Shown here: one piece after another, positions 35,003 to 53,901 of the stretch
Numbering within the stretch: position 1 is the first letter of the stretch
Layout of the letters: every line of letters begins with the position of its first letter
Source of the DNA: Pseudomonadota bacterium
Lineage (GTDB): Bacteria > Pseudomonadota > Alphaproteobacteria > Sphingomonadales > Sphingomonadaceae
Length of the DNA stretch: 64,000 nucleotides
Direction: 5' to 3'
NCBI GenBank assembly: GCA_046731355.1
Contig: JBKPKZ010000090.1
Span: 6,806 to 70,805, forward strand
The notes under the pieces: generated by a model
What the model was told of the DNA's origin: nothing
Seen by the model: only the letters and a program-made list of their open reading frames with translations
Databases searched by the model: none
Made by a program: the position numbers and the translations under genes

Positions 35003-35403
35003 AGCAGGTGAGCGATCGGTGTCGGATCGACCCCGACGCTTGCAAGCCTCCGCTCGATCTCCTCGCGCGGCATTCCTTCATCGTTTTTCGCGAGTGCCCA
35101 GGCGAGCGACGAGCGGGTCCCGCTTCGGCAGAATGCGAGCATCTTGCCCTCCGTGGCTCTGATCGCGTCCTGCATTGCCTCCGCGTCCGCAGGACCGATA
35201 CCGCGGATGATCGGGATCGATCGGTAACCGAGCCCTGCGGCCTGGGCCGCTTCCTCGATCTCGGCTCCCAGGGGCTGATCGGGGTCTTCCCCGTCAGGCC
35301 GATTGTTGACGATCATCGTGACGCCCTGCGCGGCAAGTTCGGCCACGTCGCCGGGAGCGATCTGTCCGCTGACCAGCACCTTGTCATCGAGCTCTCGCGC
35401 CAT
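34999..35403 (-). CDS. TIGR01244 / Blh-like sulfurtransferase (PTP-like fold)
   Basis: VSGQI, IVNNRPDGE, FCRSGTRS (Cx5R). Start MARELD at 35403. Confidence 0.88.
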   Translation of the reverse strand: MARELDDKVLVSGQIAPGDVAELAAQGVTMIVNNRPDGEDPDQPLGAEIEEAAQAAGLGYRSIPIIRGIGPADAEAMQDAIRATEGKMLAFCRSGTRSSLAWALAKNDEGMPREEIERRLASVGVDPTPIAHLL

Positions 35404-37171
35404 CCGAACCTTCCTCCTGCGCCGCGACTGCCGCGAGCATGGCTTCTCCGTAGCGGGCAAGCTTCACTGCACCAACTCCCTGCACGGTGCCAAGTTGTGC
35501 AAGGCTTCGAGGCCTCGACGCCGCGATCTCGCGCAAGGTCGAATCGTGGAAGATGACGTACGGAGGAACCCCGGCTTCCGAAGCAAGCACTCGGCGGGCC
35601 TCCCGTAACGCGTCGAAGAGTGGATCTGCCGGTCCCTCGTAACGTTTCCTGGCCTGCCGCCGGCGCGGCGCGGGAACGACGATCGTTAGCTCTTGCTCGC
35701 CCTTGAGTATCGGCTTCGCTCCGGGACCGAAGCTCAGCCCGCCATAGGCGTCGGAGCGCAGAGCGTCGCGAGCAATCAGCGCCCGGGCCACCGGCCGCAC
35801 CAGCGCGAGCTCCTCAGCATCAGCGATGCCGAAGACCGACAGCCGGTCATGTCCGAAGCTTCGCACCTTTTCATTGTCGTTACCTGCAAGCACGTCCGCG
35901 AGATGTGCGACGCCGAAACGCATCTCGGTGCGGAAGGCCGCCGACAGCAGCTTTCGCGCAACTTCGGTTGCATTGATCGTCTTCGGAGGATCGATGCAAT
36001 TGTCGCAATTGCCGCAGGTCTCGGGTGGATCCTCTCCAAAATGGCGCAGCAGGATGGCGCGCCTGCAGCCCGATGTCTCCACGAACGCGGCAAGCGCGTT
36101 GAGCCGTTCGCGCTCGCCGGGACGGCGGTCGGGCTCGACCTCCTGCTCGATTCGACTTCGAGCTCGGGCGAAGTCCTCCGCGCCCCAAAAGAGCCAGGCC
36201 TCGGCCGGCTCACCGTCACGGCCGGCCCGGCCCGTTTCCTGGTAGTAAGACTCGATCGACTTGGGGATTCCGGCATGGGCGACGAAGCGCACGTCGGGCT
36301 TGTCGATGCCCATTCCGAACGCGACTGTTGCAGCGATCACCATCTCCTCCGATTCGACGAAGGCCGCCTGGTTGCGAGCGCGCACCGAAGGATCGAGCCC
36401 GGCGTGATAGGCGCGCGCAGGCCTGCCGGTCGCAGCGAGCTGCTCGGCTATACGTTCCGACTTGTCGCGGCTGGGAGCGTAGACGATCCCCGGGCCCGTC
36501 TCCCCGGCGAGCAGGCGTTGGAGCTGCGCACTCAAACCGTCGCGCGGGCGGACGTGATAACGGATGTTCGGCCGGTCGAAGCCGGCAAGGATGAGCCCCT
36601 CCTCGGGAATCGAGAGCTGCGCCAGAATGTCGGCGCGCGTTCGACTGTCGGCAGTCGCCGTCAGCGCCAGACGCGGAACGTCGGAATGCTCTTCGAGAAG
36701 CGGCCTCAGCTGCCGGTAGTCGGGGCGAAAATCATGCCCCCACTCGCTGACGCAATGCGCTTCGTCGATCGCGATCAGCGAGAGGCTCACCTGGTTGACG
36801 GTGCGGCGGAACGCCTCGCCGGTCGCCCGTTCGGGAGCAACATAAAGCAGGTCGAGTTCGCCCGACTTGAAGCGCCGGACGGTCTCTTCGCGATCGCCGT
36901 CGGCGGACGTCAGCGAGGCCGCTCGAAGTCCGATCGCGTTTGCGCTTCGAATCTGGTCGTGCATCAGCGCAATCAGCGGCGAGATGACAAGCGCGGTGCC
37001 CTGCCGTGCAACGGCTGGAAGCTGGTAGCAAAGCGACTTGCCGGCTCCGGTCGGCATCACCGCCAGGGTATGGCGGCCCGCGAGCACTCGCTCGACGACG
37101 TCCTCTTGAACCCCGCGGAAATGATCGAAACCGAAGACCGAGTGAAGGATTTCCGGAACGCTGCTCACCAT
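35384..37171 (-). CDS. recQ: ATP-dependent DNA helicase RecQ
   Basis: MPTGAGKS, IDEAHCVSEWGHDFRP, QETGRAGRDG, CRR...CGNCDNC zinc domain, HRDC (PPYVIFHD). Confidence 0.97.
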   Translation of the reverse strand: MVSSVPEILHSVFGFDHFRGVQEDVVERVLAGRHTLAVMPTGAGKSLCYQLPAVARQGTALVISPLIALMHDQIRSANAIGLRAASLTSADGDREETVRRFKSGELDLLYVAPERATGEAFRRTVNQVSLSLIAIDEAHCVSEWGHDFRPDYRQLRPLLEEHSDVPRLALTATADSRTRADILAQLSIPEEGLILAGFDRPNIRYHVRPRDGLSAQLQRLLAGETGPGIVYAPSRDKSERIAEQLAATGRPARAYHAGLDPSVRARNQAAFVESEEMVIAATVAFGMGIDKPDVRFVAHAGIPKSIESYYQETGRAGRDGEPAEAWLFWGAEDFARARSRIEQEVEPDRRPGERERLNALAAFVETSGCRRAILLRHFGEDPPETCGNCDNCIDPPKTINATEVARKLLSAAFRTEMRFGVAHLADVLAGNDNEKVRSFGHDRLSVFGIADAEELALVRPVARALIARDALRSDAYGGLSFGPGAKPILKGEQELTIVVPAPRRRQARKRYEGPADPLFDALREARRVLASEAGVPPYVIFHDSTLREIAASRPRSLAQLGTVQGVGAVKLARYGEAMLAAVAAQEEGSDGARAR

Positions 37172-37205: not shown

Positions 37206-39026
37206 CTACTCCGCTGCCTCCGCCGTTTCTTCCAGCACGCGCTCGGCCGCCTGGCGATACCAGAGATCGGCGTACAGCCCGCCTTTCTCGAGCAGCTCCT
37301 CATGCTTGCCCAGCTCAGCCACGAGGCCGTTCTCGAGCACCGCGATCCGGTCAGCTCCGACAATGGTCGATAGACGATGCGCGATGATGATGGTCGTCCG
37401 GTTGCGGGCGATGCGTTCGAGCGTTTCCTGGATCGCTTGCTCGGTTCGGCTGTCGAGCGCGCTGGTCGCCTCGTCGAGGACGAGAATCGGCGGGTTCTTG
37501 AGCAAGGTTCGAGCGATGGCGACGCGCTGCTTCTCGCCGCCAGAGAGCTTGAGGCCGCGCTCGCCGACCATGCTTTCGTAGCCTTGGGGGAGCGCCTTCA
37601 CGAACTCGTCGATGGCTGCGCCCTTTGCGGCATCTTCAATCTCGCCTTTCGACGCTTCGCCACGGCCGTAGGCGATGTTGTAGCCGATTGTGTCGTTGAA
37701 CAGCACCGTATCCTGCGGAACGATTCCGATCGCCGAGCGAAGGGAACGCTGGGCGACATCGGCAATCGGCTGGCCGTCGATCAGTATGCGCCCCTCGGTG
37801 GGGTCGTAGAAACGGTACATCAGCCGTGCGAGCGTCGACTTGCCAGCGCCGGACGGGCCGACGACGGCAAGGCTGGTGCCGGCCGGGATGTCGAGATCGA
37901 TCCCCTTGAGGATCTCGCGGCCCGGCTCGTAGCCGAAGCGCACGCCTTCGAAGCGGACGTTCCCGCGCTTCACTTCGAGAGTCGACGCATCGGCCCTATC
38001 GACAACTTCGGCAGGAGTATCGAGCAAGCCGAACATCGCCTCCATGTCGATCAGTCCCTGACGGATTGAGCGATAGACCCATCCGAGCATGTCGAGCGGC
38101 CTGAAGAGCTGCATCAGGAGCGAATTCACGAGCACCACGTCACCCGGAGTGAACTGCCCGCGGCTCCAGCCCCAGACGGTGAAGATCATCGCCCCGGCCA
38201 TCATCAGATTGGTGATGAAGCTCTGGCCAATGTTGAGCCATGCGAGCGACGTCTCGTTGCGAACCGCGGCCTTCGCGAAGGCCCCTATGGCCTCGTCGTA
38301 GCGCTTCGCCTCGCGCTCCTCCGCTCCGAAATATTTGACGGTCTCGTAGTTGAGCAGCGAGTCGACCGCGCGCCCGATCGCCTTGTTGTCGACCTCGTTC
38401 ATGTCGCGCTGGATCTGGGCTCGCCAGTCGGTAACCTTGCGAGTGAACGCGATGTAGATTGCGACCATCGCCAGCGTCGCCGCGACCAGGCCGGCGCCGA
38501 ACTTCACGAAAAAGATGATGCAGATTGCGGCGAGCTCGATTGCCGTCGGAGCGATGTTGAAGAGGATGAAGTAGAGCATCATGTCGATGCTCTTGGTCCC
38601 GCGCTCGACGATCTTTGTAAGCGAGCCGGTGCGTCGCTCCAGGTGAAAACTCAGGCTGAGGTCGTGGATGTGGCGGAACACCTGACCCGACAAACGGCGG
38701 GCGGCGTTCTGTCCGACCTTCTCGAACAGGGCGTTGCGAAGATTGTCAGCCAAAACGCCCGCGAACCGGGCGACGGTGTAAGCGACGACGATCATGGCCA
38801 CGACGCCGAACGCGACATGCGGCCCGGACATCCGGTCGATTACCGCCTTGTAGGCAAAGGGCATCACCAGGGTCGCTGCCTTGCCGGCAAGAACGAGGAC
38901 GACCGCCGCTACGACGCGCGCCTTCAGCTCGAACTGACCTCTGGGCCACAGCATCGGCAAGAAGCGAACGAGCGTATTGAAGCCAGGGTTCGACTTTTCC
39001 TGTTGTTGAGCTCCGTCCGCCATCAA
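37206..39026 (-). CDS. atm1: ABCB half-transporter, Atm1/HMT1 type
   Basis: TMD with FHLERRTG and SLLNYETVK; NBD GPSGAGKST, VPQDTVLFN, LSGGEKQR, LDEATS. Confidence 0.92.
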   Translation of the reverse strand: MMADGAQQQEKSNPGFNTLVRFLPMLWPRGQFELKARVVAAVVLVLAGKAATLVMPFAYKAVIDRMSGPHVAFGVVAMIVVAYTVARFAGVLADNLRNALFEKVGQNAARRLSGQVFRHIHDLSLSFHLERRTGSLTKIVERGTKSIDMMLYFILFNIAPTAIELAAICIIFFVKFGAGLVAATLAMVAIYIAFTRKVTDWRAQIQRDMNEVDNKAIGRAVDSLLNYETVKYFGAEEREAKRYDEAIGAFAKAAVRNETSLAWLNIGQSFITNLMMAGAMIFTVWGWSRGQFTPGDVVLVNSLLMQLFRPLDMLGWVYRSIRQGLIDMEAMFGLLDTPAEVVDRADASTLEVKRGNVRFEGVRFGYEPGREILKGIDLDIPAGTSLAVVGPSGAGKSTLARLMYRFYDPTEGRILIDGQPIADVAQRSLRSAIGIVPQDTVLFNDTIGYNIAYGRGEASKGEIEDAAKGAAIDEFVKALPQGYESMVGERGLKLSGGEKQRVAIARTLLKNPPILVLDEATSALDSRTEQAIQETLERIARNRTTIIIAHRLSTIVGADRIAVLENGLVAELGKHEELLEKGGLYADLWYRQAAERVLEETAEAAE

Positions 39027-39477: not shown

Positions 39478-40335
39478 GTGATGTCCGACGTGATCGAACC
39501 GATGGTCCAGGAGGACCAGCTTCCCGGCCACGAAAGCCGGCTCGAGCCCAAGCCCGATTGGCAGCCCCGTTATTCCGGTTCCGACCGGCTGAAAGGAAAG
39601 GTCGCGCTCGTCACGGGTGCGGACAGCGGAATCGGTCGCGCCGTCGCTGCTCTGTACGCGCGCGAAGGCGCCGACGTCGCGATCCTTTATCTGTGCGAGC
39701 ATGACGACGCGGCGATGACCAAGGAAATCGTCGAAAAGGAGGGCCGGAAGGCGATCACCATCGCCGGCGACCTCGGAAGCAAGGCGTTCTGCGAGCAGGC
39801 GATCCGCCAGACGGTCGAGCAGCTGGGGGGCCTCGACGTCCTCGTCAACAACGCCGGCGAACAGCATTACGACGAGGACATCACATCCATCACCGAGGAG
39901 CAGCTTCGGCGCACCTTCCAGACGAACATCTTCGGGATGTTCTTCCTGACGCAGGCCGCGATGCCTCACCTCAAGCAAGGATCGGCGATTGTGAACTGCA
40001 CGTCTGAGACCATGTACAAGGGCTCGCCGGGCCTGCTCGATTACAGCGCGACAAAGGGCGCGATCACCGCGTTCACCCGCTCCCTTGCCAAGAATCTGGT
40101 GGAAAAGGGCATTCGCGTGAACGCCGTGGCGCCGGGACCGATCTGGACACCCCTCAATCCCTCAGGCGGCCAGCCACCGGAGAAGATCCCGCAGTTCGGC
40201 AAGAGCACTCCGATGAAGCGGCCGGGCCAGCCCAACGAGGTCGCCCCGTCCTTCCTTTTCCTGGCCTGCGAGGATTCCAGCTACATGACTGGGCAGGTTC
40301 TCCACCCGGACGGGGGAAACACCACGTCGAGCTAG
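39478..40335 (+). CDS. SDR oxidoreductase, general-stress YhdF/YghA type
   Basis: LPGHESRLEPKP N-terminal extension, TGADSGIG, VNNAG, YSATK, RPGQPNEVAP. Confidence 0.92.
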   Translation: MMSDVIEPMVQEDQLPGHESRLEPKPDWQPRYSGSDRLKGKVALVTGADSGIGRAVAALYAREGADVAILYLCEHDDAAMTKEIVEKEGRKAITIAGDLGSKAFCEQAIRQTVEQLGGLDVLVNNAGEQHYDEDITSITEEQLRRTFQTNIFGMFFLTQAAMPHLKQGSAIVNCTSETMYKGSPGLLDYSATKGAITAFTRSLAKNLVEKGIRVNAVAPGPIWTPLNPSGGQPPEKIPQFGKSTPMKRPGQPNEVAPSFLFLACEDSSYMTGQVLHPDGGNTTSS

Positions 40336-40901: not shown

Positions 40902-41855
40902 ATGATGGCGGGTGAACTGGCGGTCGTGCTTAGCGGGGGAGGCGCGAAGGGCGCTTTCCAGGTCGGGGTCCTCGACGAACTGATTACCAATCGTGGAGTA
41001 AAGATCGACATTGCCGTCGGCACGTCCACCGGGTCGATCCAGGCCCTTGCCGTGGCCCAGGACGACATCCCGAAACTTCTCCAGATGTGGCTCGGCCTCA
41101 AGGGCAGTTCGGACATCTATTCGAAAAAGCCTCTCGGCATTGTCGGCGGCGCCATTGGCGCCGATTCGATTTACGAAGCCAAGGGACTCAAGAAGCTCCT
41201 CAAGCAGAATGCAAACGATGCCAAGCTTCGCTCGACCGGGAAGAAGCTGCGCCTGGGCGTCGTCAATCTCGGAACGGGCGAGTTCCGGCCGATCGACGAG
41301 CGAACCCCTGGCATCCACAATTGGGTCTATGCGAGCTGCGCAATGCCGGTCTTCTTCGACCCGCTGACGACCAGCGATGGCGGGCAATGGGTGGATGGCG
41401 GAGTGCGCGACGTGACTCCTCTGGGGACGGCGCTCGAGCTCAACCCGCGAGGAGTCATCGTGGTCCGTGCAGGCGCCAAGCCTAGGCCGGCTGTACCGAA
41501 ATCCTACGAAAACCTGATCGAGATCGGGCTTCGCGCGGTCGACATCCTGCAAAAGGAGGTCTCCGCGAACGACCTCGCGAACGCGGCATTGATCAACGAC
41601 CTCATAGCCGCCCGGGAAGCCCAGCTGAGGGCGCTGCAGGCGGCGAACGTTGATCCGGTGAGCATGACTGCAGTGCTTCGCCCGTTGGACGTCAAGCTTG
41701 CCGAATACCGTTTTGCGCCGATTCGGGTGATCGAGCCGGAAAAAGACTATCTGGACACGCTGAAATTTGATCCGGCGAGGATCCGGGAAGCAATCGAGGG
41801 CGGCAGGCAGGCCGTCGAACGCGAATGGCATGCAATTGAGCCGCTACTGACTTAG
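40902..41855 (+). CDS. Patatin-like phospholipase
   Basis: SGGGAKG, GTSTG nucleophile elbow, DGG acid motif. Confidence 0.92.
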   Translation: MMAGELAVVLSGGGAKGAFQVGVLDELITNRGVKIDIAVGTSTGSIQALAVAQDDIPKLLQMWLGLKGSSDIYSKKPLGIVGGAIGADSIYEAKGLKKLLKQNANDAKLRSTGKKLRLGVVNLGTGEFRPIDERTPGIHNWVYASCAMPVFFDPLTTSDGGQWVDGGVRDVTPLGTALELNPRGVIVVRAGAKPRPAVPKSYENLIEIGLRAVDILQKEVSANDLANAALINDLIAAREAQLRALQAANVDPVSMTAVLRPLDVKLAEYRFAPIRVIEPEKDYLDTLKFDPARIREAIEGGRQAVEREWHAIEPLLT

Positions 41856-42295: not shown

Positions 42296-42825
42296 AGCGG
42301 CTCCGCGCAACCGCGTCTTTCCTCACCTCCGACTTCGACAATGGCCATGAGCGGGAAACTCCGATCGGACATTCCGTCAGAGCAACCCTCATGAGCTTCG
42401 ATGGTGAGCTTGAACGACTCGTCGTCGAGCACGCCCTCCCATTGGTTGGCGGCTGCGTCATAATGCGTCCAGACGCGCGTCCCCACCTGATTTTCGGGGG
42501 TGCTATACGTGACGCAGCGGCCGTCGACCTCCGCTCCCCAGAACGGTTCGGTCCCGACCGCCCGGAGCCGCTTCCTTGGAAGCTCTCCCCCATCCTGGGT
42601 CCGGCAGGCGCCCGCGGATTTTGCCGGCGGCAGAACCGAGGAATTTTCGGCGGTGAAGTCCCGATCGTCGATACGCATGGCGTGCGATGTAGCCGTCTCC
42701 GCGGATCGTTCATCTTCACCAGCTCTCGATCCTGTGTCCGAGCACGCGGCCATCATCGCCAACGAAGCCATGAATAGAGCTGGCCGCACGTCGAAGCCTT
42801 TCGAGTTGCCGTTCTCGCCCCGCAT
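42292..42825 (-). CDS. COG3650 family lipoprotein
   Basis: Lipobox-like AMMAAC, GTEPFWG, CSDGMSDR...RGCA. Exact start uncertain. Confidence 0.8.
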   Translation of the reverse strand: MRGENGNSKGFDVRPALFMASLAMMAACSDTGSRAGEDERSAETATSHAMRIDDRDFTAENSSVLPPAKSAGACRTQDGGELPRKRLRAVGTEPFWGAEVDGRCVTYSTPENQVGTRVWTHYDAAANQWEGVLDDESFKLTIEAHEGCSDGMSDRSFPLMAIVEVGGEERRGCAEPL

Positions 42826-42860
42826 TGGGTACAGCGCACAGGAAATCGAAGGAGAGTCGC

Positions 42861-43385
42861 ATGCGCAAGTGGCTAATCGGACCGGTCTTGGCAGCGGTCG
42901 CCGCTAGCCCGGCCGCGGCAGCGCTTCCGGAAGGGACCAAGGCGCCCGACTTCACCACGACCGGCGCAGTCGGCGGCAAGGCGTTCAAGCTCCACCTCGC
43001 CGACCAGCTCAGGAAAGGGCCCGTCGTCCTGTACTTCTTTCCGAAGGCTTTCACTCAGGGATGCACCCTTGAAGCGCATGCCTTCAGCGAGGCGTCCAAG
43101 GACTTCAAGAAGGCCGGTGCCCGAGTGATCGGAATGTCCGCCGACGATCTGCCGACGCTTCAGAAATTCTCGGTCGAGGCGTGCCGGAGCGCCTTCCCGG
43201 TCGCGACTGCTACCCCCGACGTGATCAAGGCTTACGATGTTTCACTCAAACAGAAGCCAGGCCTTACAGACCGGACATCTTACGTGATCGGCAAGGACGG
43301 CAAGATCGCTTTCGTCCACTCCGATCTCAACTGGAGCGAGCACGTATCCAAGACGCTGGCCGCGGTTCAGTCACTCAAACGCTAG
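42861..43385 (+). CDS. Exported peroxiredoxin (BCP/PrxQ-like)
   Basis: Signal peptide; LYFFPKAFTQGCTLEA (PxxxTxxC); DRTSYVI. Confidence 0.9.
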   Translation: MRKWLIGPVLAAVAASPAAAALPEGTKAPDFTTTGAVGGKAFKLHLADQLRKGPVVLYFFPKAFTQGCTLEAHAFSEASKDFKKAGARVIGMSADDLPTLQKFSVEACRSAFPVATATPDVIKAYDVSLKQKPGLTDRTSYVIGKDGKIAFVHSDLNWSEHVSKTLAAVQSLKR

Positions 43386-45154
43386 CGCTTCACCCGCCAC
43401 ATCTTGAACGGAGAGTCCTTTGGCAAGGCGACCGGATCCAGCCAGGCTGGAACCTTGCCTTTGATTAGCTGGCCGTAGAAACCGTTTGGCGCTTCCGAGC
43501 GGAAGATCGTCGCCGTCGACATGTTCGGGCAAATCAGCAGATAGTCCGAGCGATATTTGCCAATGATCGTATGCGCCTGGGCTTCGTTGCCGCGGAATGC
43601 CTTCATGACGTCACCGATCTGCTCGCCGTTGCGGTGGTAGGGGCCGGTCACCGCGTCGTGGTGGGTTACGGTGATCAGCCTCGGCCCGAGGTCGACGAAA
43701 GTGAAGACCATTCCCTTCGGCTGCTGGGCGACCGCCTTCATCCCCCACAGGGAGGTGCACTGGCGGTTGGCCTTGTCGACGGCGAGCTCCGCGGGCGTCT
43801 TCTTCTTCACTGGGTAGAATTGACTCGCGAACGGAACGGCCGCGCCGAGGCCGAGCACGATCAAAAGGAACGTGCCGAGCACCCGAACCGCCGCAAGCCT
43901 GGAGCCCCAGGTCCACGGCACGGCGACCAAGATCAGTGCCGTGGCTCCAGCCACTCCGAGGACCTGCGCCGCGGGGCCGGTTCGGGTCTGCCAGAGGAGG
44001 AGCAACGCAGCCGCGAGAAGCGGAGCTGCGGCGGCGAGGATGCGCCGGAGCAACTCCGGATCACGCCACTTGGTCCATGCGAGAAGGAGCCAGCCGATTA
44101 TCCCCGTCGCCGGGATCGCGCTGACTCCGAGGGCGGTCTGCCAGCCATGGCGATAGATCGGACGTGCCTCACGAACATGGCTAAGCCACAATTGCTGGAC
44201 CTCGGGCGACACGCCTTCGAGCCGCGACAGGCAGTGCGGCCACATCAATGCGTGGAACGCCGCCACGGCGCCTCCCGCCAGGGCCGCAAGTACAAGACGC
44301 TTCTTCCAATCGCCCGGCGAAAGAAGGGCCAATCCGAACAGGAGCGCCGAACCGAGCAGAGCGTCGGAGAGCCAGACCGGTGACAGGGCATCGCATACGG
44401 GCAGCCGGTTTGCGTATGACGCGAAACCGACGAAACCCAGAGCCGCCCCGCCCCCGAAAGCGGCCGCAAAGGTCGATACGCGCCGACGTTCGCCGGTATC
44501 GCTGACCCAGAACAGGGCCGTCGCCGTGGCGCCAATGGCGATGTAGATCAGCATTTCGAGGCCGATCCACAACGACATTGCCGAGGCGATCCCGGCGACC
44601 GCGCCGCCCCTGGCACGCTTCGGATCCGCCAGTCCGGCAAAGGCCAGCGCAAGCAATGCAAGCTGCCATCCGTGATGATCGATCCGCGCCGGCATGAACA
44701 TGCCCATGGCCGAGCCCGCGAAGAACAGGGCGACAAACGCCAGCGGGTAGGCCCGGCGGTCGACGAGCCGCCGAACGGTCAAAGCCAGGGAAAAGAGCAG
44801 AAGCAGGAGCGGGAGCATCGGCGCGATCGCGATCGCCGCCTGCTCCGCATGAGGCCCGCCAATCAGCGGTCGAAGCGCGAGGATGATCCCGGCGATCGGC
44901 AGGTCGACGAGCCGCGACCAGTGAATGTTGGCACCATAGGGCGGGTTCAGCCGATACTGACGAAGATCGAACCAGTCCTGACCTCCAAGGAGTGCGCGGA
45001 CCTGGCTCATCCGAAGATTGTCGTCGGTATCGGGGAGCTGGAAATAGTGGATCGCGGTCCAGCGATTGATCACGAAATAGACACACAACGCTAGCCAGGT
45101 GCCGACCACAACCCATTTCCAGTAGCGGTCGACCAGTTCGAGAACGCGATCCAA
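43382..45154 (-). CDS. STT3/AglB-like GT-C glycosyltransferase (oligosaccharyltransferase fold)
   Basis: Multi-TM N-domain with DTDD...R, WFD...PPYG.NIHW, IDHH, VREARP and WQTR; soluble C-domain with FVDLG at the WWDYG position. Confidence 0.75.
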   Translation of the reverse strand: MDRVLELVDRYWKWVVVGTWLALCVYFVINRWTAIHYFQLPDTDDNLRMSQVRALLGGQDWFDLRQYRLNPPYGANIHWSRLVDLPIAGIILALRPLIGGPHAEQAAIAIAPMLPLLLLLFSLALTVRRLVDRRAYPLAFVALFFAGSAMGMFMPARIDHHGWQLALLALAFAGLADPKRARGGAVAGIASAMSLWIGLEMLIYIAIGATATALFWVSDTGERRRVSTFAAAFGGGAALGFVGFASYANRLPVCDALSPVWLSDALLGSALLFGLALLSPGDWKKRLVLAALAGGAVAAFHALMWPHCLSRLEGVSPEVQQLWLSHVREARPIYRHGWQTALGVSAIPATGIIGWLLLAWTKWRDPELLRRILAAAAPLLAAALLLLWQTRTGPAAQVLGVAGATALILVAVPWTWGSRLAAVRVLGTFLLIVLGLGAAVPFASQFYPVKKKTPAELAVDKANRQCTSLWGMKAVAQQPKGMVFTFVDLGPRLITVTHHDAVTGPYHRNGEQIGDVMKAFRGNEAQAHTIIGKYRSDYLLICPNMSTATIFRSEAPNGFYGQLIKGKVPAWLDPVALPKDSPFKMWRVKR

Positions 45155-45181
45155 GCTTGCCTCTTTTTAAAGGGTTCCCTG

Positions 45182-45203
45182 CTGTAGCGGGGCACGGCTA
45201 CAG
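45182..45203. promoter_or_regulatory. Palindrome in the divergent promoter of the glycosylation locus
   Basis: CTGTAGC-N8-GCTACAG, perfect 7-bp arms, in a 68-bp intergenic gap. Confidence 0.45.
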
Positions 45204-45222
45204 AGCAAGCAGACCGCCTTCC

Positions 45223-45630
45223 ATGATTTCCTCGCTTCATCCTGACCGCCGCCGCCTCCTCGGCCAGCTTTTGCGCTTTGGCGTAAGCGGCGCCGCCGCC
45301 ACTGCGCTTGGCGTCGGAATCTACGCGATCGTTGCGCTGGTCCTGCGGTGGCACCCCCAGCTTGGAAATTTCCTCGCCTACGCGATCGCGGTTGCCAGCG
45401 GCTATTTCATGCACAGCTTCTGGAGCTTCAAAGGCCATGGGTCCGAGCGGACGCACGCAACGAAGGTGCGGTTCGTCACCGTTTCGATCATCAGCTATGC
45501 ACTCAACAGCTTCTGGGTTTGGTTGCTGTTCAACCATCTCGACCTCGGACGAGCCGCGCCGATCCTCCCAATGCTGTTCGTTACGCCGCTGGTGACGTTC
45601 ACGCTCAACCGCCAATGGGTTTTCCGGTGA
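45223..45630 (+). CDS. GtrA family lipid-linked sugar flippase
   Basis: About 135 aa, 4 TM; LRFGVSG, Y.MHSFWSF, RF, FTLNRQWVF. Confidence 0.9.
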   Translation: MISSLHPDRRRLLGQLLRFGVSGAAATALGVGIYAIVALVLRWHPQLGNFLAYAIAVASGYFMHSFWSFKGHGSERTHATKVRFVTVSIISYALNSFWVWLLFNHLDLGRAAPILPMLFVTPLVTFTLNRQWVFR

Positions 45631-46358
45631 TGGACAGGTCCGTCTACGATTCCATGGCCGAATTGGACGAACGCCATTGGTGGTATGTCGCCCGCCGCAA
45701 GGTCCTCGCAGCGCTGATCCGACGCCGCGTGCGGCCGCCGGCGAATGCGCGCGTCCTGGAGATTGGCTGTGGAACGGGTCACAATCTCAAGATGCTCGGC
45801 GAGTTCGGGACCGTCGACGGCCTCGAGATCGATGAGGCCGCCCGGAGCTTCGCCGAGAAAAGGGCCGGCCACGAGATTTACTCGGCTCCGCTTCCCGAGC
45901 TCGCCGGGATTCCCGAGCACAATTACGATGTCGTCGGTGCCTTCGACGTCATCGAGCACATTCCCGACGACGTGGGAGCAATGGCATCCATCGCCCGCCT
46001 TCTCAAACCCGGCGGGAAGCTGGTGATGACCGTCCCCGCGCATCCATGGATGTGGTCGGCGCACGACGTCGTGAACCACCACCAGCGGCGCTATTCCAAA
46101 GCCTCTTTGAAAAGACTGATCGAGGCGTCGCCGTTCAAGCTGGAAGCGATCGGCTATTTCAACAGCCTTTTATTCCCCGTGGCGGTTGCCGAACGGCTCG
46201 CATCGAAGGCGCTAGGCAAGGACGACTCGAAGTTGTCGCTTCCGCCGGCGCCGATCAATCAGGCTTTGGAGCGAACCTTTGCCGTCGAGCGCGGCTTGAT
46301 CGGCCGCGTGCCGCTGCCGCCGGGGCTTTCGCTGTTCGCGGTGGCTTCCGCGACATAG
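45630..46358 (+). CDS. Class I SAM-dependent methyltransferase (HWW-type)
   Basis: MDRSVYDSMAELDERHWWYVARR, LEIGCGTG, FDVIEH, LKPGG, H.RRY; coupled to gtrA. Confidence 0.9.
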   Translation: MDRSVYDSMAELDERHWWYVARRKVLAALIRRRVRPPANARVLEIGCGTGHNLKMLGEFGTVDGLEIDEAARSFAEKRAGHEIYSAPLPELAGIPEHNYDVVGAFDVIEHIPDDVGAMASIARLLKPGGKLVMTVPAHPWMWSAHDVVNHHQRRYSKASLKRLIEASPFKLEAIGYFNSLLFPVAVAERLASKALGKDDSKLSLPPAPINQALERTFAVERGLIGRVPLPPGLSLFAVASAT

Positions 46359-47308
46359 CCTAGCTGGCCAGCGCGAGCTTCACCGCCAGCAACCTCCTGC
46401 ACGATGTATAAAGGCCGGCCCTTCACCTCATTGTAGAGGCGGCCGATATATTCGCCCATCAGTGCAAGGACGAACATCTGCACTGCACCGAGCACCACGA
46501 CGACCAGCATGAGCGAGGTCCAGCCCTGAATGTTGCGGCCGGTGAACCAGGCATAGGCGATGTAGGCGATCATCAGCAGCGAGCCGAGCGAGAGAGCGAG
46601 ACCTGCATGGCTCGCGAGCTTCAGCGGCGCCGACGAGAAACCGGTGAGTGCGTCGAATGCGAACCGGAGCATCTTGCGGAACGGATATTTGGTCTCGCCG
46701 GCGAAGCGCTGATCGCGGTCGTAAGCGAACGGCACCTGCCGAAATCCAATCCAGGCGACCATTCCCCGGATGAACCGGGACTGTTCGGGCATCGCCAGCA
46801 AAGCCGCCAGCGCGCGGCGGCTCATCAGCCGGAAGTCGCCGGTGTCCACCGGAATATCGATCTCGGTCGCCCGGGACAGCAGTCGATAAAAACCGTGCGC
46901 CGTAGCTCGCTTGAACGCCGTCTCTCCCGCTCGACTTCGGCGCACCCCGTAGACCACGTCGGCCTCCTCCTCGCGCATTGCCTCGAGCATCGCCGGCAGC
47001 AATTCCGGCGGGTCCTGAAGGTCCGCGTCGATGATCAGGATCTTCTCGCCGCGGCAAAGATCGAGGCCGGCTGTCAGCGCCAGCTGGTGGCCATGATTGC
47101 GCGAAAGGTTGACGCCCAGGACATGGCCGTCCGTGTCCGCGAGTTGCCGTATGACCGGCCAGGTGCGATCCCGCGATCCGTCGTTGATCAGGACAAGCTC
47201 GTAATCTTCGCCGACCGCGGTGCGCGCGGCCGCAGTCAGGCGCCGGTACAGTTCCGGAAGGCAGGCTTCTTCATTGAAGCAGGGAATTACGACGGAAAGA
47301 GCGGTCAT
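46259..47308 (-). CDS. GtrB/ArnC-like GT2 polyprenyl-phosphate glycosyltransferase
   Basis: VIPCFNEE, NDGSRD, LSRNHGHQ.AL.AG, IDADLQDPP, DTGDFRL, GETKY, two C-terminal TM, LMGEYIGR. Confidence 0.92.
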   Translation of the reverse strand: MTALSVVIPCFNEEACLPELYRRLTAAARTAVGEDYELVLINDGSRDRTWPVIRQLADTDGHVLGVNLSRNHGHQLALTAGLDLCRGEKILIIDADLQDPPELLPAMLEAMREEEADVVYGVRRSRAGETAFKRATAHGFYRLLSRATEIDIPVDTGDFRLMSRRALAALLAMPEQSRFIRGMVAWIGFRQVPFAYDRDQRFAGETKYPFRKMLRFAFDALTGFSSAPLKLASHAGLALSLGSLLMIAYIAYAWFTGRNIQGWTSLMLVVVVLGAVQMFVLALMGEYIGRLYNEVKGRPLYIVQEVAGGEARAGQLGYVAEATANSESPGGSGTRPIKPRSTAKVRSKA

Positions 47309-48873
47309 CTGTCGATACGATAGAGTATCGACCCATGTCCTTTCCAGAGCAGTGTCATTCCCCGTGTCAGTTCGGGATTGAAGGCGGGAATGTCGATCAG
47401 CCAGACATAGTCGAATTTGTCGCGCGGAATGGCCTTCAGCGCCTTGTTGACTGTCCAGCGCTTCTTGCCTTTGCCGACAGCGCACCAGTCGGGGAACACC
47501 ATCTGCGACGGGTCTTTCCGGAATACGCCGGCGTCGGTGTAGGTGACCCGCATCAGGTTGGTCCCATCGATCTGCCACTGATCGTTCGAGAAACCCTGTC
47601 GGCGGGCCATGATCATTCCCGGCAAATGGCTGTTGCGCGGCAATGCCCAAACGCGCCTGCAATCGCGGCCGACGAGCGAGACGACGCGGGCGCCTTCGGG
47701 CAGCTCGTTCAGCGCTTCGAGTTTCGCCTGCTGGTCGTCCGCGGCGATCGCCATGCTCCACGTTACCCCGGCAAGGCGGATCACGAGCAAGGCCGATCCG
47801 ATCAACGCGAGCGCTCGCGCCGTGGGAAGGTGGGTGTCTTCGCGAAATCGGATCGCCAGCGGAATCAAGGCGATCATGTACGGAGCCAGCCGCATGTCCG
47901 CGTAGGCTGAGCCGAACACCGTCCAGGGGAGGATCACGAAGCTGACTGCCAGGACGAGCGCGGAAAATGCGAGGTTACGCGAGAAGGCGAGCTTCCGGCT
48001 GGCAACCGTGAACACGAAGAGAATCGGGATCACCGAGATTGTTGCGATGTCGAACCAGCGCCAACGGTCGCGAACCGCCGAGTAGATCCATTCCCACTTG
48101 AGCTTCCAGTAGAACCAGGCCCGGGTCATGTCGCCGTGGGTCTCGTACCGCCACAGGAACATGGCGACGACCGGCAGAGCCAGCACCGAGGCGTGCGCGG
48201 CCGCATTGACGATCGAACGGAACCAGCCGCGCCCTTCGTCATGCTGTCGGACGGCCTCCGCCGAAAAAGCGAGCAGTCCCAAAGTGCCCCAGCCGAACGT
48301 GTGCGCGAAGAAGACCACGAACGAAATCGGCACGAACAGCATGGCGCGGAGCCTCAGCCGTCCCTGTCTGGCAAGTCGCAGCCAAAGGCCGAAAGCCAGG
48401 AACGCCAGCGCCATCGACAATGCAAAATTGACGAACCCGAAGACGAACGGGTGATTGTAGACCAAGAGCAATGAGAAGATCGCGGTCGGCGGCAGGCGAT
48501 GGTGCACTTCGCGAGCGACCAGCAGGAATCCCGCGGTCGTCAGCGCCGGGATCGACAGGATGATCAGCTTCACTGCGGGTTCGAGACCGAGGGTCGGCCC
48601 GAGCAGCTGCACGAGACCGTCCACTCCGAGATTGCCGATCGGCGCCCAGTCGTACTGGTAATATTGGCGAAGCCACGGGGAGCTGCCGACGTCGAGCTGG
48701 ACCCGATAGCGTCCGATGTGCCCGAATAGATCAACCAGCGGCGCGTCCTGCGGATAGAGCAAGGGAACGACCGAAAGCAGGATCAGCAACGCCGCAAACC
48801 ACCGCGTCTCCCACCAGTGGCGGTGAGACGTTACCGGCGGTTCAACCGCAGCATGCAGCGCGAACGTGCTCAT
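47305..48873 (-). CDS. Polytopic membrane protein, probable GT-C glycosyltransferase
   Basis: 10+ TM; acidic first loop PLVDLFGH..R; FGFVNF; soluble C-terminal domain; coupled to the GtrB-like gene. Confidence 0.65.
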   Translation of the reverse strand: MSTFALHAAVEPPVTSHRHWWETRWFAALLILLSVVPLLYPQDAPLVDLFGHIGRYRVQLDVGSSPWLRQYYQYDWAPIGNLGVDGLVQLLGPTLGLEPAVKLIILSIPALTTAGFLLVAREVHHRLPPTAIFSLLLVYNHPFVFGFVNFALSMALAFLAFGLWLRLARQGRLRLRAMLFVPISFVVFFAHTFGWGTLGLLAFSAEAVRQHDEGRGWFRSIVNAAAHASVLALPVVAMFLWRYETHGDMTRAWFYWKLKWEWIYSAVRDRWRWFDIATISVIPILFVFTVASRKLAFSRNLAFSALVLAVSFVILPWTVFGSAYADMRLAPYMIALIPLAIRFREDTHLPTARALALIGSALLVIRLAGVTWSMAIAADDQQAKLEALNELPEGARVVSLVGRDCRRVWALPRNSHLPGMIMARRQGFSNDQWQIDGTNLMRVTYTDAGVFRKDPSQMVFPDWCAVGKGKKRWTVNKALKAIPRDKFDYVWLIDIPAFNPELTRGMTLLWKGHGSILYRIDR

Positions 48874-49040
48874 CCGGTTTTGTGTGACGCCTCGGTGACG
48901 AAAGCGGTGCCTACTAGTGGACGCGCTGTCTTTGTCCATGAGGTTTGACAGGCCGCGATCGGCGAGCCGCCCGCCCATTCAAGCGCGATACAGCTTTAAG
49001 CCGTTAATCCAATGCAACTTTCTGTGAAGGAGGCATTCGA

Positions 49041-49655
49041 ATGAAGACGCTTCTGATCGGCGGAGCGGCGCTCTTGGCGTCCGCAGCGGCGCTTGCCCAG
49101 GTTGCACCTGTTACTCCGGCGCCGGCCCAGCGCGCCGAGCGAGTCCAGACTCGCGCCGAAGTCCAGGCCAAGGTGACGGAACATTTCGCAAGGGTCGATG
49201 CCAACCATGACGGCTCGATCACCAAGGTCGAAGCCGATGCCGCGATGCAGGCGTTCCATGCGAAATCCGCCGAGCATGCGAAGGATCGACGGGACGATCG
49301 ACGCGACAACGTCTTCGAGCGCCTCGACGCAAATCGCGATGGCGCCGTGAGCCGGTCGGAATGGGACGCTGGCGCGGCTCAGCGCGAGCAGCGGATCGCC
49401 TCGCGCGACCGAAATGGCGACGGACGTCCGGACGCCCGCGGGCCCGGGCACGGCGGAATGCGCGAAATGGGCGGCTTTGGCGGTCGCATGTTCGAGATGG
49501 CCGACGCCAACAAGGACGGCCGGGTGACGCTGCAGGAGGCTCAGGCCGCTGCGCTCCAACATTTCGACATGGCCGACGCCAACCGCGACGGTCAGGTCAC
49601 CCCGGACGAGCGCCGCCAATTGCACGAGCGCATGCGCGCCCAGCACCGCGGCTAA
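49041..49655 (+). CDS. Secreted EF-hand calcium-binding protein
   Basis: AAGGAGG RBS, signal peptide, loops DANHDGSITKVE, DANRDGAVSRSE, DANKDGRVTLQE, DANRDGQVTPDE and degenerate DRNGDGRPD. Confidence 0.9.
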   Translation: MKTLLIGGAALLASAAALAQVAPVTPAPAQRAERVQTRAEVQAKVTEHFARVDANHDGSITKVEADAAMQAFHAKSAEHAKDRRDDRRDNVFERLDANRDGAVSRSEWDAGAAQREQRIASRDRNGDGRPDARGPGHGGMREMGGFGGRMFEMADANKDGRVTLQEAQAAALQHFDMADANRDGQVTPDERRQLHERMRAQHRG

Positions 49656-49675
49656 GAGAGGCCCAAGCAAGGTGA

Positions 49676-49710
49676 AAGGGCCCGGCGGTTTCGCCGGGTC
49701 CCTTCTATTT
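49676..49710. terminator. Bidirectional intrinsic terminator between the EF-hand gene and cfa
   Basis: AAGGG-CCCGGCG-GTTT-CGCCGGG-T-CCCTT hairpin between convergent genes. Confidence 0.75.
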
Positions 49711-50979
49711 CACAGGTGCGGGAGCCGCAGCCCTCTTCCGTGACGAATTCACCTTCGCGGGCAGATCGTCGATCCCTCGGTACCGCGCCTCAGCTTCGAT
49801 CATGTAATCGCGGGTAATCGGAAGTGCCCTCCGATCCCGCACGTACTGGACTTGGAAATTGCAAGCCGCTCCGCTCTCGAACATCACGATCCCACCGGCG
49901 AGATAGAATTCCCACATGCGGAAGAAACGCTCGTCATACATCTTCACGATCTTCGCCCGCGCCTTCGTCGCCCGCTCGAGCCAATGACGCAGCGTGTATG
50001 CGTAATGGAGCCGAAGAGTCTCGACGTCGCTGACGATCATTTTCACCTTCTCGCTCGCTGAGCACATCTGCGACAAGCTTGGGAGGTGATAGCCGGGGAA
50101 GATCCATTTATCGGTGAAGGGATCAGGCGTTCCAGCGCCGCCCAGCTTGCCGATCGTGTGCAGCAACATCACGCCATCGTCGGTCAGAAGCTCACGGCAT
50201 TTGGCATAGAATTGGTCATAGTGGGCGGCACCGACATGCTCGAACATTCCGACCGAAACGATCCGGTCGAAGCGCCCTTCGAGCAGTCGGTAATCGATCA
50301 ATTCGAACTTTACATGGTCTGAGACGCCGGCTTCCTTCGCGCGGCGACGCGCGACCTTCAACTGCTCGTCCGACAATGTGATCCCGAGTACGTCGACGCC
50401 TGCGACCTTGTGCAGGTAGATTGCCATTCCGCCCCAGCCGCAGCCGATATCCAGCACGCGCTGACCTCGTTTTAGATCGAGCTTGGCGGCGATGTGGGCC
50501 TTCTTGTCGGCCTGTGCCTGCTCGAGGCTGTTTTTCGGGTCGGTGAAGTAAGCGCAACTGTATTGCAGGTCATCGTCGAGGAAGAGCGCATAGAGCTCGT
50601 TGCCGATGTCGTAATGGTGAGCGACATTCTTGTGTGACTTGCGAACGTCGTTGCGACGGAAGAGCGATGCGAGCTTGCCCATCTTGCCCTTTCCCAGCGC
50701 CTTGCGACGTCCCTGCTCCCAAGGCTTCGCACCGACGATCAACTCGAGCAGATCGAGAATATTCCCATCTTCAATCGTTAGTCGGCCGTCCATGTAAAGC
50801 TCGCCGAAACGAAGCCGCGGGTTCCGGAAAAGGTCGAGCGCCGCGCGCTTGTCGTGAAGCTTCACCGTGATGTGCTTGCCGCCACCTGGACCGTGCGTTT
50901 CTTGCCGTCCGTCCGGCTGAATCAAGGTGATTCTGCCGACGGGAAGAATTTGCTCGATGAACCGGCCAAGCAGCGACAT
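49705..50979 (-). CDS. cfa: Cyclopropane-fatty-acyl-phospholipid synthase family methyltransferase
   Basis: NVAHHYDIGN, QYSCAYF, LDIGCGWGG, VSVGMFEHVG, YAYTLRHW, RMWEFYL. Start MSLLG at 50979. Confidence 0.93.
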   Translation of the reverse strand: MSLLGRFIEQILPVGRITLIQPDGRQETHGPGGGKHITVKLHDKRAALDLFRNPRLRFGELYMDGRLTIEDGNILDLLELIVGAKPWEQGRRKALGKGKMGKLASLFRRNDVRKSHKNVAHHYDIGNELYALFLDDDLQYSCAYFTDPKNSLEQAQADKKAHIAAKLDLKRGQRVLDIGCGWGGMAIYLHKVAGVDVLGITLSDEQLKVARRRAKEAGVSDHVKFELIDYRLLEGRFDRIVSVGMFEHVGAAHYDQFYAKCRELLTDDGVMLLHTIGKLGGAGTPDPFTDKWIFPGYHLPSLSQMCSASEKVKMIVSDVETLRLHYAYTLRHWLERATKARAKIVKMYDERFFRMWEFYLAGGIVMFESGAACNFQVQYVRDRRALPITRDYMIEAEARYRGIDDLPAKVNSSRKRAAAPAPVK

Positions 50980-51043
50980 ATGTGAGCACCTCCGATTGAA
51001 GGATGTGCCACGAGGCCTCCCTCGCAGCAACGGCCGGGCGCGA

Positions 51044-53855: not shown

Positions 53856-53901
53856 ACTCCTGACGCATTACCGCGAGCGGTCGCAAGGCCCTCGCCACGG
53901 C

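Follow-up and report, generated by a model that had tools for sequence, protein, structure and literature searches.

A predicted STT3/AglB-lineage glycosyltransferase family without the WWDYG motif, encoded beside GtrA and GtrB-type genes in a Sphingomicrobium-like alphaproteobacterium

What does an oligosaccharyltransferase (OST) scaffold do once the sequon is no longer read? The usual definition of STT3-type enzymes is by the WWD motif and the glycosylation of N-X-S/T sites, and PglB is essentially the only form known from bacteria. The question is made concrete by a minus-strand gene at 43382..45154 (TTG start at 45154, stop codon included at 43382) in a 64,000 nucleotide stretch of contig JBKPKZ010000090.1 (assembly GCA_046731355.1; "the window" below, to whose first letter all coordinates refer unless another locus is named). 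The source is a soil alphaproteobacterium that is Sphingomicrobium-like, and the gene encodes a 590 amino acid (aa) protein, here called the STT3-like protein. A preliminary description of this DNA, made from its letters and open reading frames (ORFs), had called it an STT3/AglB-like homologue with intact catalytic residues and a rewritten WWDYG motif. We think it fairly probable that it is a catalytically competent, periplasm-facing, metal-dependent GT-C glycosyltransferase of the STT3/AglB lineage that moves a hexose from polyprenyl monophosphate onto a periplasmic acceptor other than the sequon. Since the metal- and phosphate-site residues are kept, the sequon pocket is lost and conserved genes for the synthesis and flipping of a lipid-linked single sugar lie alongside, the protein is most likely part of an envelope glycosylation pathway that has not been described before.

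The gene is real, and its motif set is far beyond chance: homologues of the protein number more than 4,300 and are nearly all about 590 aa long, an exhaustive HMMER search with the family finds at least 4,239 clusters (50% identity) at E<=1e-3, and individual residues are conserved across an alignment of 109 sequences that reaches down to 26% identity and from which all residue frequencies below are taken. Species-representative genomes contain at least 593 matches. The layout is a multi-helix membrane domain (residues ~12-450) followed by a small C-terminal periplasmic domain (~455-590). Among named relatives the closest come from Sphingomicrobium and Sphingomonas, under the public labels AcrB/AcrD/AcrF, MFS permease or DUF805, and a full-text literature search returned no paper describing a WWDYG-less STT3-like family or experimental data on its members.

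The fold of the protein was examined with an AlphaFold2 model built on the 109-sequence alignment (pLDDT 96.8, pTM 0.95). Foldseek comparison of this model with PDB structures gives human STT3B (6s7t_A, E 1.1e-10) and AfAglB-L (7e9s_A, E 1.3e-10, template-modelling (TM) score 0.69; TM 0.65-0.69 overall) as the best matches, followed by 3wak and yeast Stt3 (8agc_A); these four leading entries have E values of 1e-10 to 1e-9 and TM(query) of 0.64-0.69. The top 14 matches are STT3/AglB throughout (E 1e-10 to 4e-8, TM 0.60-0.69), so that OST catalytic subunits lead and no non-OST fold stands ahead of them, which bears out the homology originally proposed. Weaker matches follow to DPY19 (8e-8) and PglB (1e-6 to 5e-6, TM 0.47-0.56), and then to ArnT and AftA. 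The C-terminal domain by itself matches 3vu0 in Foldseek, and a hidden Markov model (HMM) of the family matches the AfAglB-S C-terminal globular domains 3vgp (E 0.0032) and 3vu0 (E 0.023). Profile-profile comparison was made with a reference set of true STT3-family proteins, namely two annotated haloarchaeal AglBs (found by tblastn of haloarchaeal replicons) and L083 and L104, which are WWDYG-bearing ORFs from a scan of viral contigs for DNA that matches WWDYGxW, in which most pattern matches were unrelated and were discarded. The hhalign probability for the two families is 93.7% (E 2e-7, 441 columns), and a global run gives 92.9% (E 5e-8). Because the fold search, the HMM match of the C-terminal domain and the profile-profile alignment are three independent lines of evidence, the protein is assigned, from its sequence profile and predicted structure, to the STT3/AglB lineage, with homology that includes the C-terminal domain.

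Curated family models and single-sequence searches detect little of this. A Pfam scan of the protein has no match even at E<=1, and a search of PDB sequences returns noise only (bacteriorhodopsin, GH2). The NCBIfam matches are weak, a Leptospira GT-C family at 3.5e-5 and archaeo_STT3 TIGR04154 at E 0.054; the latter is collinear in its coordinates and scores 11.8 bits against a cutoff of 450. Among 75 family members scanned with Pfam, STT3 (PF02516) is the commonest sub-threshold match (7/75, best 2.3e-4), PMT_2 is a sub-threshold match in 4/75, and none of the 75 reaches the STT3 or PMT_2 threshold. No Pfam or NCBIfam model captures the family. We also considered membership in the ArnT/PMT_2 (GT83/GT39-type) families and rejected it on the sub-threshold PMT_2 matches in those four members and on the low structural rank of ArnT (5f15 is at Foldseek rank 22, E 3.7e-5, TM 0.44). 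Since the curated models do not reach the family, and WWDYG is absent from it and the DK/MI motif not conserved (below), the STT3-like protein falls outside GT66/STT3 as currently defined.

Could the protein be a transporter or a scaffold rather than a glycosyltransferase, as its public names would have it? Those names stand on records of close homologues and also on plasmid-borne copies. They find no Pfam or NCBIfam support for any of AcrB/AcrD/AcrF, MFS permease or DUF805, Foldseek matches of the model to transporters are at noise level (E >0.05, TM ~0.1), and the invariant charged residues of the family coincide with OST catalytic motifs. The family scans and the fold search thus contradict the labels, which we set aside, and a transporter or scaffold function is in our view very improbable.

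Are the catalytic residues of an OST present? In AfAglB-L the residue set is D47, D161/H163 and E360 (PMC8342417, PMC7226087), the numbers that the preliminary description had given. AfAglB is a dolichol phosphate (Dol-P)-dependent enzyme with monophosphate-site residues; its second "DXD" motif is D161-H162-H163, in which the Asp and the second His are metal ligands and the middle His is near the phosphate, and H81 and R426 are at the phosphate site, R426 being "close to the phosphate site" (PMC8342417). E360 is in the TIXE motif and K618 in the DK motif (PMC8342417, PMC7226087). The backbone of TIXE in AfAglB pairs with the sequon peptide (PMC8342417), and the Asn carboxamide in OSTs is activated by an Asp/Glu pair, D47/E360 in AfAglB (PMC7226087).

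Translation of the gene, by which all motif coordinates were checked, places every motif quoted earlier at its residue, with one correction: the acidic pair given as "D43/D44" does not exist as such, as position 43 is a Thr among the acidic residues D42, D44 and D45. The motif D42-T43-D44-D45 (45020..45031, minus strand like all motifs of this gene) is a candidate for the first DXD motif and lies in external loop 1, where predicted helix 43-56 begins. I77-H78-W79-S80-R81 (44912..44926; the NIHW stretch has H78 at 44921-44923) lies just before the second transmembrane helix, and I158-D159-H160-H161 (44672..44683) is the archaeal-type (Asp-His-His) version of the second "DXD" motif. H326-V-R-E329-A-R-P332 (44159..44179) resembles TIXE and lies in the external loop that joins predicted helices 283-304 and 338-361, the equivalent of external loop 5 (EL5), and W388-Q-T-R391 (43982..43993) contains R391, the counterpart of phosphate-site R426 of AfAglB.

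These residues are held almost without exception. D44, R48 (four residues past D44), H78, W79, R81, D159, H160, E200, D255, R391, H507 and R508 are invariant in 109/109 sequences, and D42 (101), D45 (107), H161 (106), E329 (108), C254, C308 and C466 are each conserved in at least 90%. The TIXE-like stretch reads W323-x3-V-x-E-[GA]-x-P, with W323 in 105, V327 in 86 and P332 in 93 of the sequences, the Thr-Ile being replaced by a variable residue and Val. Both hhalign runs place DHH on DHH, V327-x-E329-[GA]-x-P332 on TIGEAQP and R391 on the Arg of TQVRFDYY. H78 is paired in the global alignment with the Gln of haloarchaeal GQFG, whose position matches AfAglB H81 by spacing, and is thereby a candidate counterpart of H81. 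D44 to H78 and AfAglB D47 to H81 are both 34 residues, and D44 to D159 is 115 residues vs 114 from D47 to D161. The family as a whole thus retains the Asp-His-His of the metal motif, the Glu of the TIXE-like stretch and the His and Arg of the phosphate site, and the claim that DHH, E329 and R391 are intact holds in the register with AglB as well as in the alignment.

The acceptor side is different. WWD is strictly conserved in STT3 proteins and hydrogen-bonds to the +2 Ser/Thr of the sequon (PMC10859629). The HMM alignment to 3vgp and 3vu0 puts the family's a-P-l-D-l-G-P onto S-W-W-D-Y-G-N, and its r-D-V-i-r-A-F onto v-D-A-A-K-F-F (DK), and the WWDYG position is fixed by hhalign as well. In the window protein this position is F486-V-D488-L-G490-P491 (43682..43699; FVDLG 486-490 is 43685-43699). 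Among the 109 sequences residue 486 is P in 56 and F in 10, 487 is L, I or V, D488 is kept in 96, 489 is L or I, G490 is kept in 75 and P491 in 98, and no Trp occurs, so the rewriting of WWDYG noted in this one protein extends through the family as [P/F]-[LIV]-D-[LI]-G-P. At the DK (DxxK) position, D515-V-M-K518 (43601..43612) in the window protein, D515 is found in 72 sequences and residue 518 is R in 26, A in 15, E in 10 and K in 9, the window protein itself being one that reads DVMK. Between the two positions lies a family-specific signature, Y506-H507-R508-N509 (43628..43639, within GPYHRN 504-509), in which residue 506 is Y in 54 and H in 54; the alignment to AglB-S has a gap here, and the signature is without an equivalent in AglB. 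The A..II.KY..DYLLIC stretch that follows in the C-terminal domain ends at C542.

By these alignments both Trp residues of WWD and the Lys of DK are lost family-wide. Because they are gone and an invariant [Y/H]-H-R is present, the conclusion that the acceptor would not be a classical N-X-S/T sequon, already drawn in the preliminary description, is well founded. [Y/H]-H507-R508 may be part of a new acceptor site, and its His-Arg pair could bind an anionic head group.

Loss of the sequon pocket still leaves room for an enzyme that does glycosylate proteins, whether an N-OST or a peptide-directed transferase of another kind, and that would place a single hexose on periplasmic or outer-membrane proteins by a rule other than N-X-S/T. 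The Asn-activating Asp/Glu pair has conserved counterparts in E329 and, probably, D44, the stretch that pairs with peptide in AfAglB is strongly kept in its TIXE-like form, and 96 of the 109 sequences keep the Asp of the WWD position, D488. The family-wide loss of the strictly conserved Trp-Trp and of the DK Lys speaks against it, and we regard such a function as possible and rather doubtful; the other points that bear on it are given below.

How does the active site compare with those of known enzymes? Archaeal AglB (AfAglB-S and AfAglB-L; GT66; 7E9S, 3WAK, 3VGP, 3VU0) shares with the STT3-like protein a GT-C fold plus small C-terminal globular domain, the Asp-His-His second DXD, the E-A-x-P form of TIXE and the phosphate-site His and Arg, all collinear and with near-identical spacing, and, as we infer for the STT3-like family, a monophosphate-linked donor. 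The family differs from AglB in having x-x-D-x-G for WWDYG, in not conserving the DK Lys, in its extra invariant [Y/H]-H-R, in falling below the Pfam STT3 and TIGR04154 thresholds, and in being bacterial (Sphingomonadales, sporadically Rhizobiaceae). PglB of Campylobacter lari (3RCE, 5OGL, 6GXC) is likewise a bacterial GT-C of this lineage that consists of one subunit and has Asp, Glu and Arg in a periplasmic active site, but it has D-x-D instead of DHH, WWDYG and an MI motif, and it transfers an Und-PP-heptasaccharide (Und, undecaprenyl) onto D/E-X-N-X-S/T; its structural match to the STT3-like protein is weaker than those of AglB and STT3. DPY19 (7ZLG, 7ZLH) has an STT3-like variable module and a luminal domain, uses a polyprenyl-monophosphate monosaccharide donor and is without WWDYG. 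This tryptophan C-mannosyltransferase is metal-independent and has no metal-coordinating residues (PMC10154233), whereas the STT3-like family keeps the D...DHH set (D44 and D159 invariant, H161 in 106/109). Because these predicted metal ligands are retained, the active site is nearer to that of an OST than to that of DPY19, which is moreover eukaryotic, and no WxxW-type recognition is implied for the family.

Where would the sugar come from? The STT3-like gene is divergent from, and separated by 68 nt from, a gene for a GtrA-family small membrane protein (45223..45630, plus strand, ATG start at 45223; PF04138, 3.3e-20), a putative polyprenyl-phosphate sugar flippase. This gene is translationally coupled, by a TGATG overlap, to a plus-strand gene for a 242 aa class I S-adenosylmethionine (SAM)-dependent methyltransferase (45630..46358; Methyltransf_23/11/12/25). 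On the minus strand, a GtrB-type GT2 polyprenyl-phosphate hexosyltransferase of 349 aa with two C-terminal transmembrane helices (46259..47308) is preceded by a second GT-C-fold membrane protein of an unnamed family (47305..48873, ~522 aa) whose stop overlaps the GT2 start (ATGA), and this GT-C-GT2 pair converges on the GtrA-methyltransferase pair. The GT2 is identified by its PDB and NCBIfam matches: Synechocystis GtrB 5ekp at 1e-81 (full length, residues 3-309), ArnC at 1e-46, and the NCBIfam models PgfS at 1.5e-73 and ArnC at 3e-51, both aligned over their full length. The convergent 3' ends of the methyltransferase and GT2 genes overlap by ~100 nt (46259-46358), and no intrinsic-terminator-like site occurs in 43200-49200.

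The constancy of this arrangement was measured over 80 orthologous loci in species-representative genomes (46-93% identity, 8-kb range; all Sphingomonadales or probably mis-binned metagenome-assembled genomes). GtrA is the immediate divergent neighbour in 79, the remaining locus ending at a contig edge; 74 loci have the GT2 as well, 68 the methyltransferase and 39 the second GT-C. The 41 loci that have no second GT-C within 8 kb keep GtrA, the GT2 and the methyltransferase linked to the STT3-like gene. Two loci carry labels from outside the order, L014 ("Bacillota bacterium", 62% identity) and L076 ("Prosthecochloris vibrioformis", 46%); both have the full Sphingomonadales-type module and are probably binning or labelling errors.

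The divergent intergenic region (45155..45222, 68 nt) contains a bipartite motif, GCTTGC(C)-N15-17-CTA[C/A/G]AG in the direction of the STT3-like gene, that is kept in orthologous loci (the upstream regions of 17 loci, among L001-L060, were compared). It looks like a sigma-70-type alphaproteobacterial promoter and is treated here as a candidate; a scan with the E. coli-type consensus does not call it. A 7-bp inverted repeat, CTGTAGC-N8-GCTACAG, was considered as a conserved element and dropped, as it is found in the closest relatives only and is not kept across the orthologous loci.

Because the linkage to GtrA and a GtrB-type GT2 is conserved, the donor is probably a monosaccharide-P-lipid, which lends further support to the polyprenyl-monophosphate sugar donor originally suggested. 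AglB, by contrast, is partnered by an Agl oligosaccharide-assembly cluster. Linked sets of GT2 synthase, GtrA-family flippase and GT-C are known in GtrABC (phage/Shigella), ArnC/ArnT, CsbB/GtcA/YfhO and S. mutans PgfS/PgfM1/PgfM2, and the features of such Gtr-type systems are present here: a GT2 with C-terminal transmembrane helices, a GtrA-family protein and a GT-C linked to both across genomes. Unlike in those systems the GT-C is of the STT3/AglB lineage rather than of the GtrC, ArnT/PMT_2 or YfhO families, and the module also includes a SAM methyltransferase, which is conserved, and often a further GT-C that is unrelated to the first. The STT3-like protein is thus like a hybrid, an AglB catalytic core working inside a Gtr-type three-component system.

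An alternative is that the STT3-like protein is an en bloc oligosaccharyltransferase whose undecaprenyl-(pyro)phosphate oligosaccharide is made elsewhere, GtrA and the GT2 serving the second GT-C. Its fold family is one of en bloc transferases, the second GT-C is translationally coupled to the GT2, and more GT4 and GT2 genes lie 4-8 kb downstream. Such a division of labor would be hard to reconcile with the 41 loci in which GtrA, GT2 and methyltransferase accompany the STT3-like gene and the second GT-C is missing, or with GtrA as immediate divergent neighbour in all but one locus and as a co-transcribed upstream gene in a paralogous subfamily (below), and no Wzx-type flippase or initiating phosphoglycosyltransferase is found in the annotated part of the window (~35-57 kb). 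We consider en bloc transfer unlikely.

With a lipid-linked monosaccharide as donor, the pathway might run as follows: on the cytoplasmic side of the membrane the GT2 would use a nucleotide sugar to charge undecaprenyl phosphate with one hexose, and GtrA would flip the lipid-linked sugar. The methyltransferase may modify that sugar, as AglP, which acts on a dolichol-phosphate-linked glycan, does in Haloferax, although our confidence in this step is low. In the STT3-like enzyme H78, H160 and R391 would then bind the monophosphate, and D44 (or D42), D159 and H161, with E329, a divalent cation. The EL5-like loop and the C-terminal domain would flank a groove that presents the acceptor nucleophile, to which the sugar would be transferred by an inverting reaction. 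Where present, the second GT-C would probably add or extend a sugar on the same product.

What, then, might the acceptor be? We lean toward a non-protein envelope glycoconjugate, for example an extended glycosphingolipid or a periplasmic or surface glycan. Gram-negative GtrA/GtrB-type systems mostly decorate glycans or lipids, the extra GT-Cs in the clusters (the second GT-C here and a GT87 in locus L117) suggest stepwise assembly of a glycan, and the His-Arg pair possibly binds an anionic head group. A polypeptide read by a new recognition rule has a distinctly smaller, still appreciable chance, and anything else is improbable. Sphingomonads are without lipopolysaccharide (LPS), their outer leaflet being built from glycosphingolipids. 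The known sphingolipid glycosyltransferases Sgt1, Sgt2 and Cer-GlcAT are cytoplasmic enzymes of other families (PMC13318209), and the literature searched yielded no enzymes for the extended glycans of sphingomonad glycosphingolipids. A role confined to glycosphingolipids across the whole family is less likely, because a homologue is found in Shinella (below).

For a polypeptide acceptor it can be said that monosaccharide-P-lipid donors can serve protein glycosylation, as they do with DPY19 and in the Pgf system of S. mutans, whose PgfS the GT2 here resembles, and that STT3, AglB, PglB and DPY19, the nearest structural relatives, all modify polypeptides. The habit of GtrA/GtrB systems and the stepwise glycan building suggested by the extra GT-Cs oppose it, and our literature search turned up no N-glycoproteome from Sphingomonadales, nor do we know of one. 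In its broadest form, which we put forward tentatively, the idea is that the family is the transferase of an unrecognised general alphaproteobacterial protein glycosylation, derived from AglB, in which Und-P-hexose (Und-P, undecaprenyl phosphate) would give a single, possibly methylated, hexose on Asn or another side chain and the sequon would be read by [Y/H]-H-R. If true, STT3-type protein glycosylation would reach well past the PglB lineage, and the family would be a natural example of sequon rewiring.

Several points weigh against the reading that we favor, that is, a metal-dependent transferase of single hexoses to a non-sequon, and by our lean non-protein, acceptor. The action of all of the closest structural relatives on polypeptides counts against the non-protein part of it. 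The global hhalign run pairs AglB GND-A-W-Y-H-Y-R-Q with G58-Q59-D60-W61-F62-D63-L64-R65-Q66, so that DTDD falls in an insertion and Q59, not D44, takes the place of the AglB catalytic Asp; the assignment of D42-x-D44 as the first DXD motif, with D44 as AglB D47 (PglB D56), is nevertheless probable, being favored by its invariance, its location at the N-terminus of the first external-loop helix and its spacing. There are two GT-Cs in the module, and the GT2/GtrA product could in principle feed the second one instead; of the two it is the STT3-like gene that is constant, as 41/80 loci have no second GT-C.

The second GT-C itself has no Pfam or NCBIfam match and 3,816 database homologues at E<=1e-3. 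Its AlphaFold2 model (pLDDT 85.5) is closest in Foldseek to STT3B (3.2e-4) and then to STT3A, ALG9, AftB, Pmt4 and PimE (TM ~0.4-0.45). We considered whether it might be a paralogue of the STT3-like protein and rejected this, as hhalign gives 5.9% and no sequence kinship is detectable despite the GT-C fold.

More distant homologues carry similar partners. GtrA, GT2 and methyltransferase genes are also found beside homologues of 31-35% identity in Novosphingobium, Shinella, Flavisphingomonas and one metagenome scaffold; in Shinella (Rhizobiaceae) GT2 and methyltransferase genes are the divergent neighbours. A paralogous subfamily (26-35% identity) is encoded in a tight operon, FAD-oxidoreductase -> GtrA -> STT3-like gene, so that GtrA is co-transcribed directly upstream; examples are at L116 5893-9797, L117 5089-8776, L118 5056-8755, L119 148-4050 and L082 2361-6239. 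These operons are often near another GtrA-GT2/GT87-methyltransferase set, and they occur in Novosphingobium, Flavisphingomonas and several metagenomic contigs; in Flavisphingomonas both subfamilies share one island. The FAD-oxidoreductase (~510-540 aa) is of the amine-oxidase/CrtI-like PRK07208 family and not of FAD_binding_4, which gives no support to a role as a DprE1-like epimerase; it may oxidise the lipid-linked sugar. The window contains neither a paralogue of the STT3-like gene nor an FAD-oxidoreductase partner and so has the GtrA-methyltransferase-GT2-linked type only.

The genes around the module are as follows. An AhpC/TSA peroxiredoxin gene (42825-43385, plus strand) converges on the STT3-like gene and overlaps its stop by 4 nt; it is linked in only 2/80 loci and was rejected as a module member. 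To its left are genes for a RecQ helicase (35384-37171, minus), an MsbA-like ABC exporter (37206-39026, minus), which could be a glycosphingolipid flippase in an LPS-less sphingomonad, a short-chain dehydrogenase/reductase (SDR; 39478-40335, plus) and a patatin-like phospholipase (40902-41855, plus). Beyond the second GT-C are an EF-hand protein gene (49041-49655, plus), a CMAS/cyclopropane-fatty-acid-synthase-like gene (within 49705-51300, minus), a DUF7056/DUF7055 protein gene (51044-52747, minus), a GT4 gene (52722-53855, minus) and two GT2 genes (53902-54957 and 54935-56167, minus), the last three being the glycosyltransferase genes 4-8 kb downstream of the module. CMAS lies within 8 kb in 18/80 loci, CMAS-like and EF-hand genes flank the module in Flavisphingomonas (L118) too, and 49041-56167 may belong to a larger envelope-modification neighbourhood. 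A 224-aa ORF at 48996-49670 (minus) was discarded as a gene, as it is low-complexity (Ala/Val/Gly-rich) and almost certainly the shadow of the opposite-strand EF-hand gene.

From sequence comparison and modelling, then, the STT3-like family emerges as a new, large bacterial branch of STT3-lineage GT-Cs with a predicted rewiring of its acceptor site and a function that we infer. Its members have gone unannotated or been misannotated (AcrB/MFS), and they would combine an archaeal-type core and a replaced acceptor pocket with a monosaccharide supply from GtrA/GtrB; a widespread WWD-less relative of AglB in Alphaproteobacteria would come as a surprise to glycobiologists. Identification of the acceptor would place the family either at a periplasmic step in the building of envelope glycolipids or glycans or in a new system of bacterial protein glycosylation, and with either outcome thousands of annotations would be corrected and a compact, 590-aa, single-subunit scaffold would be gained for glyco-engineering.

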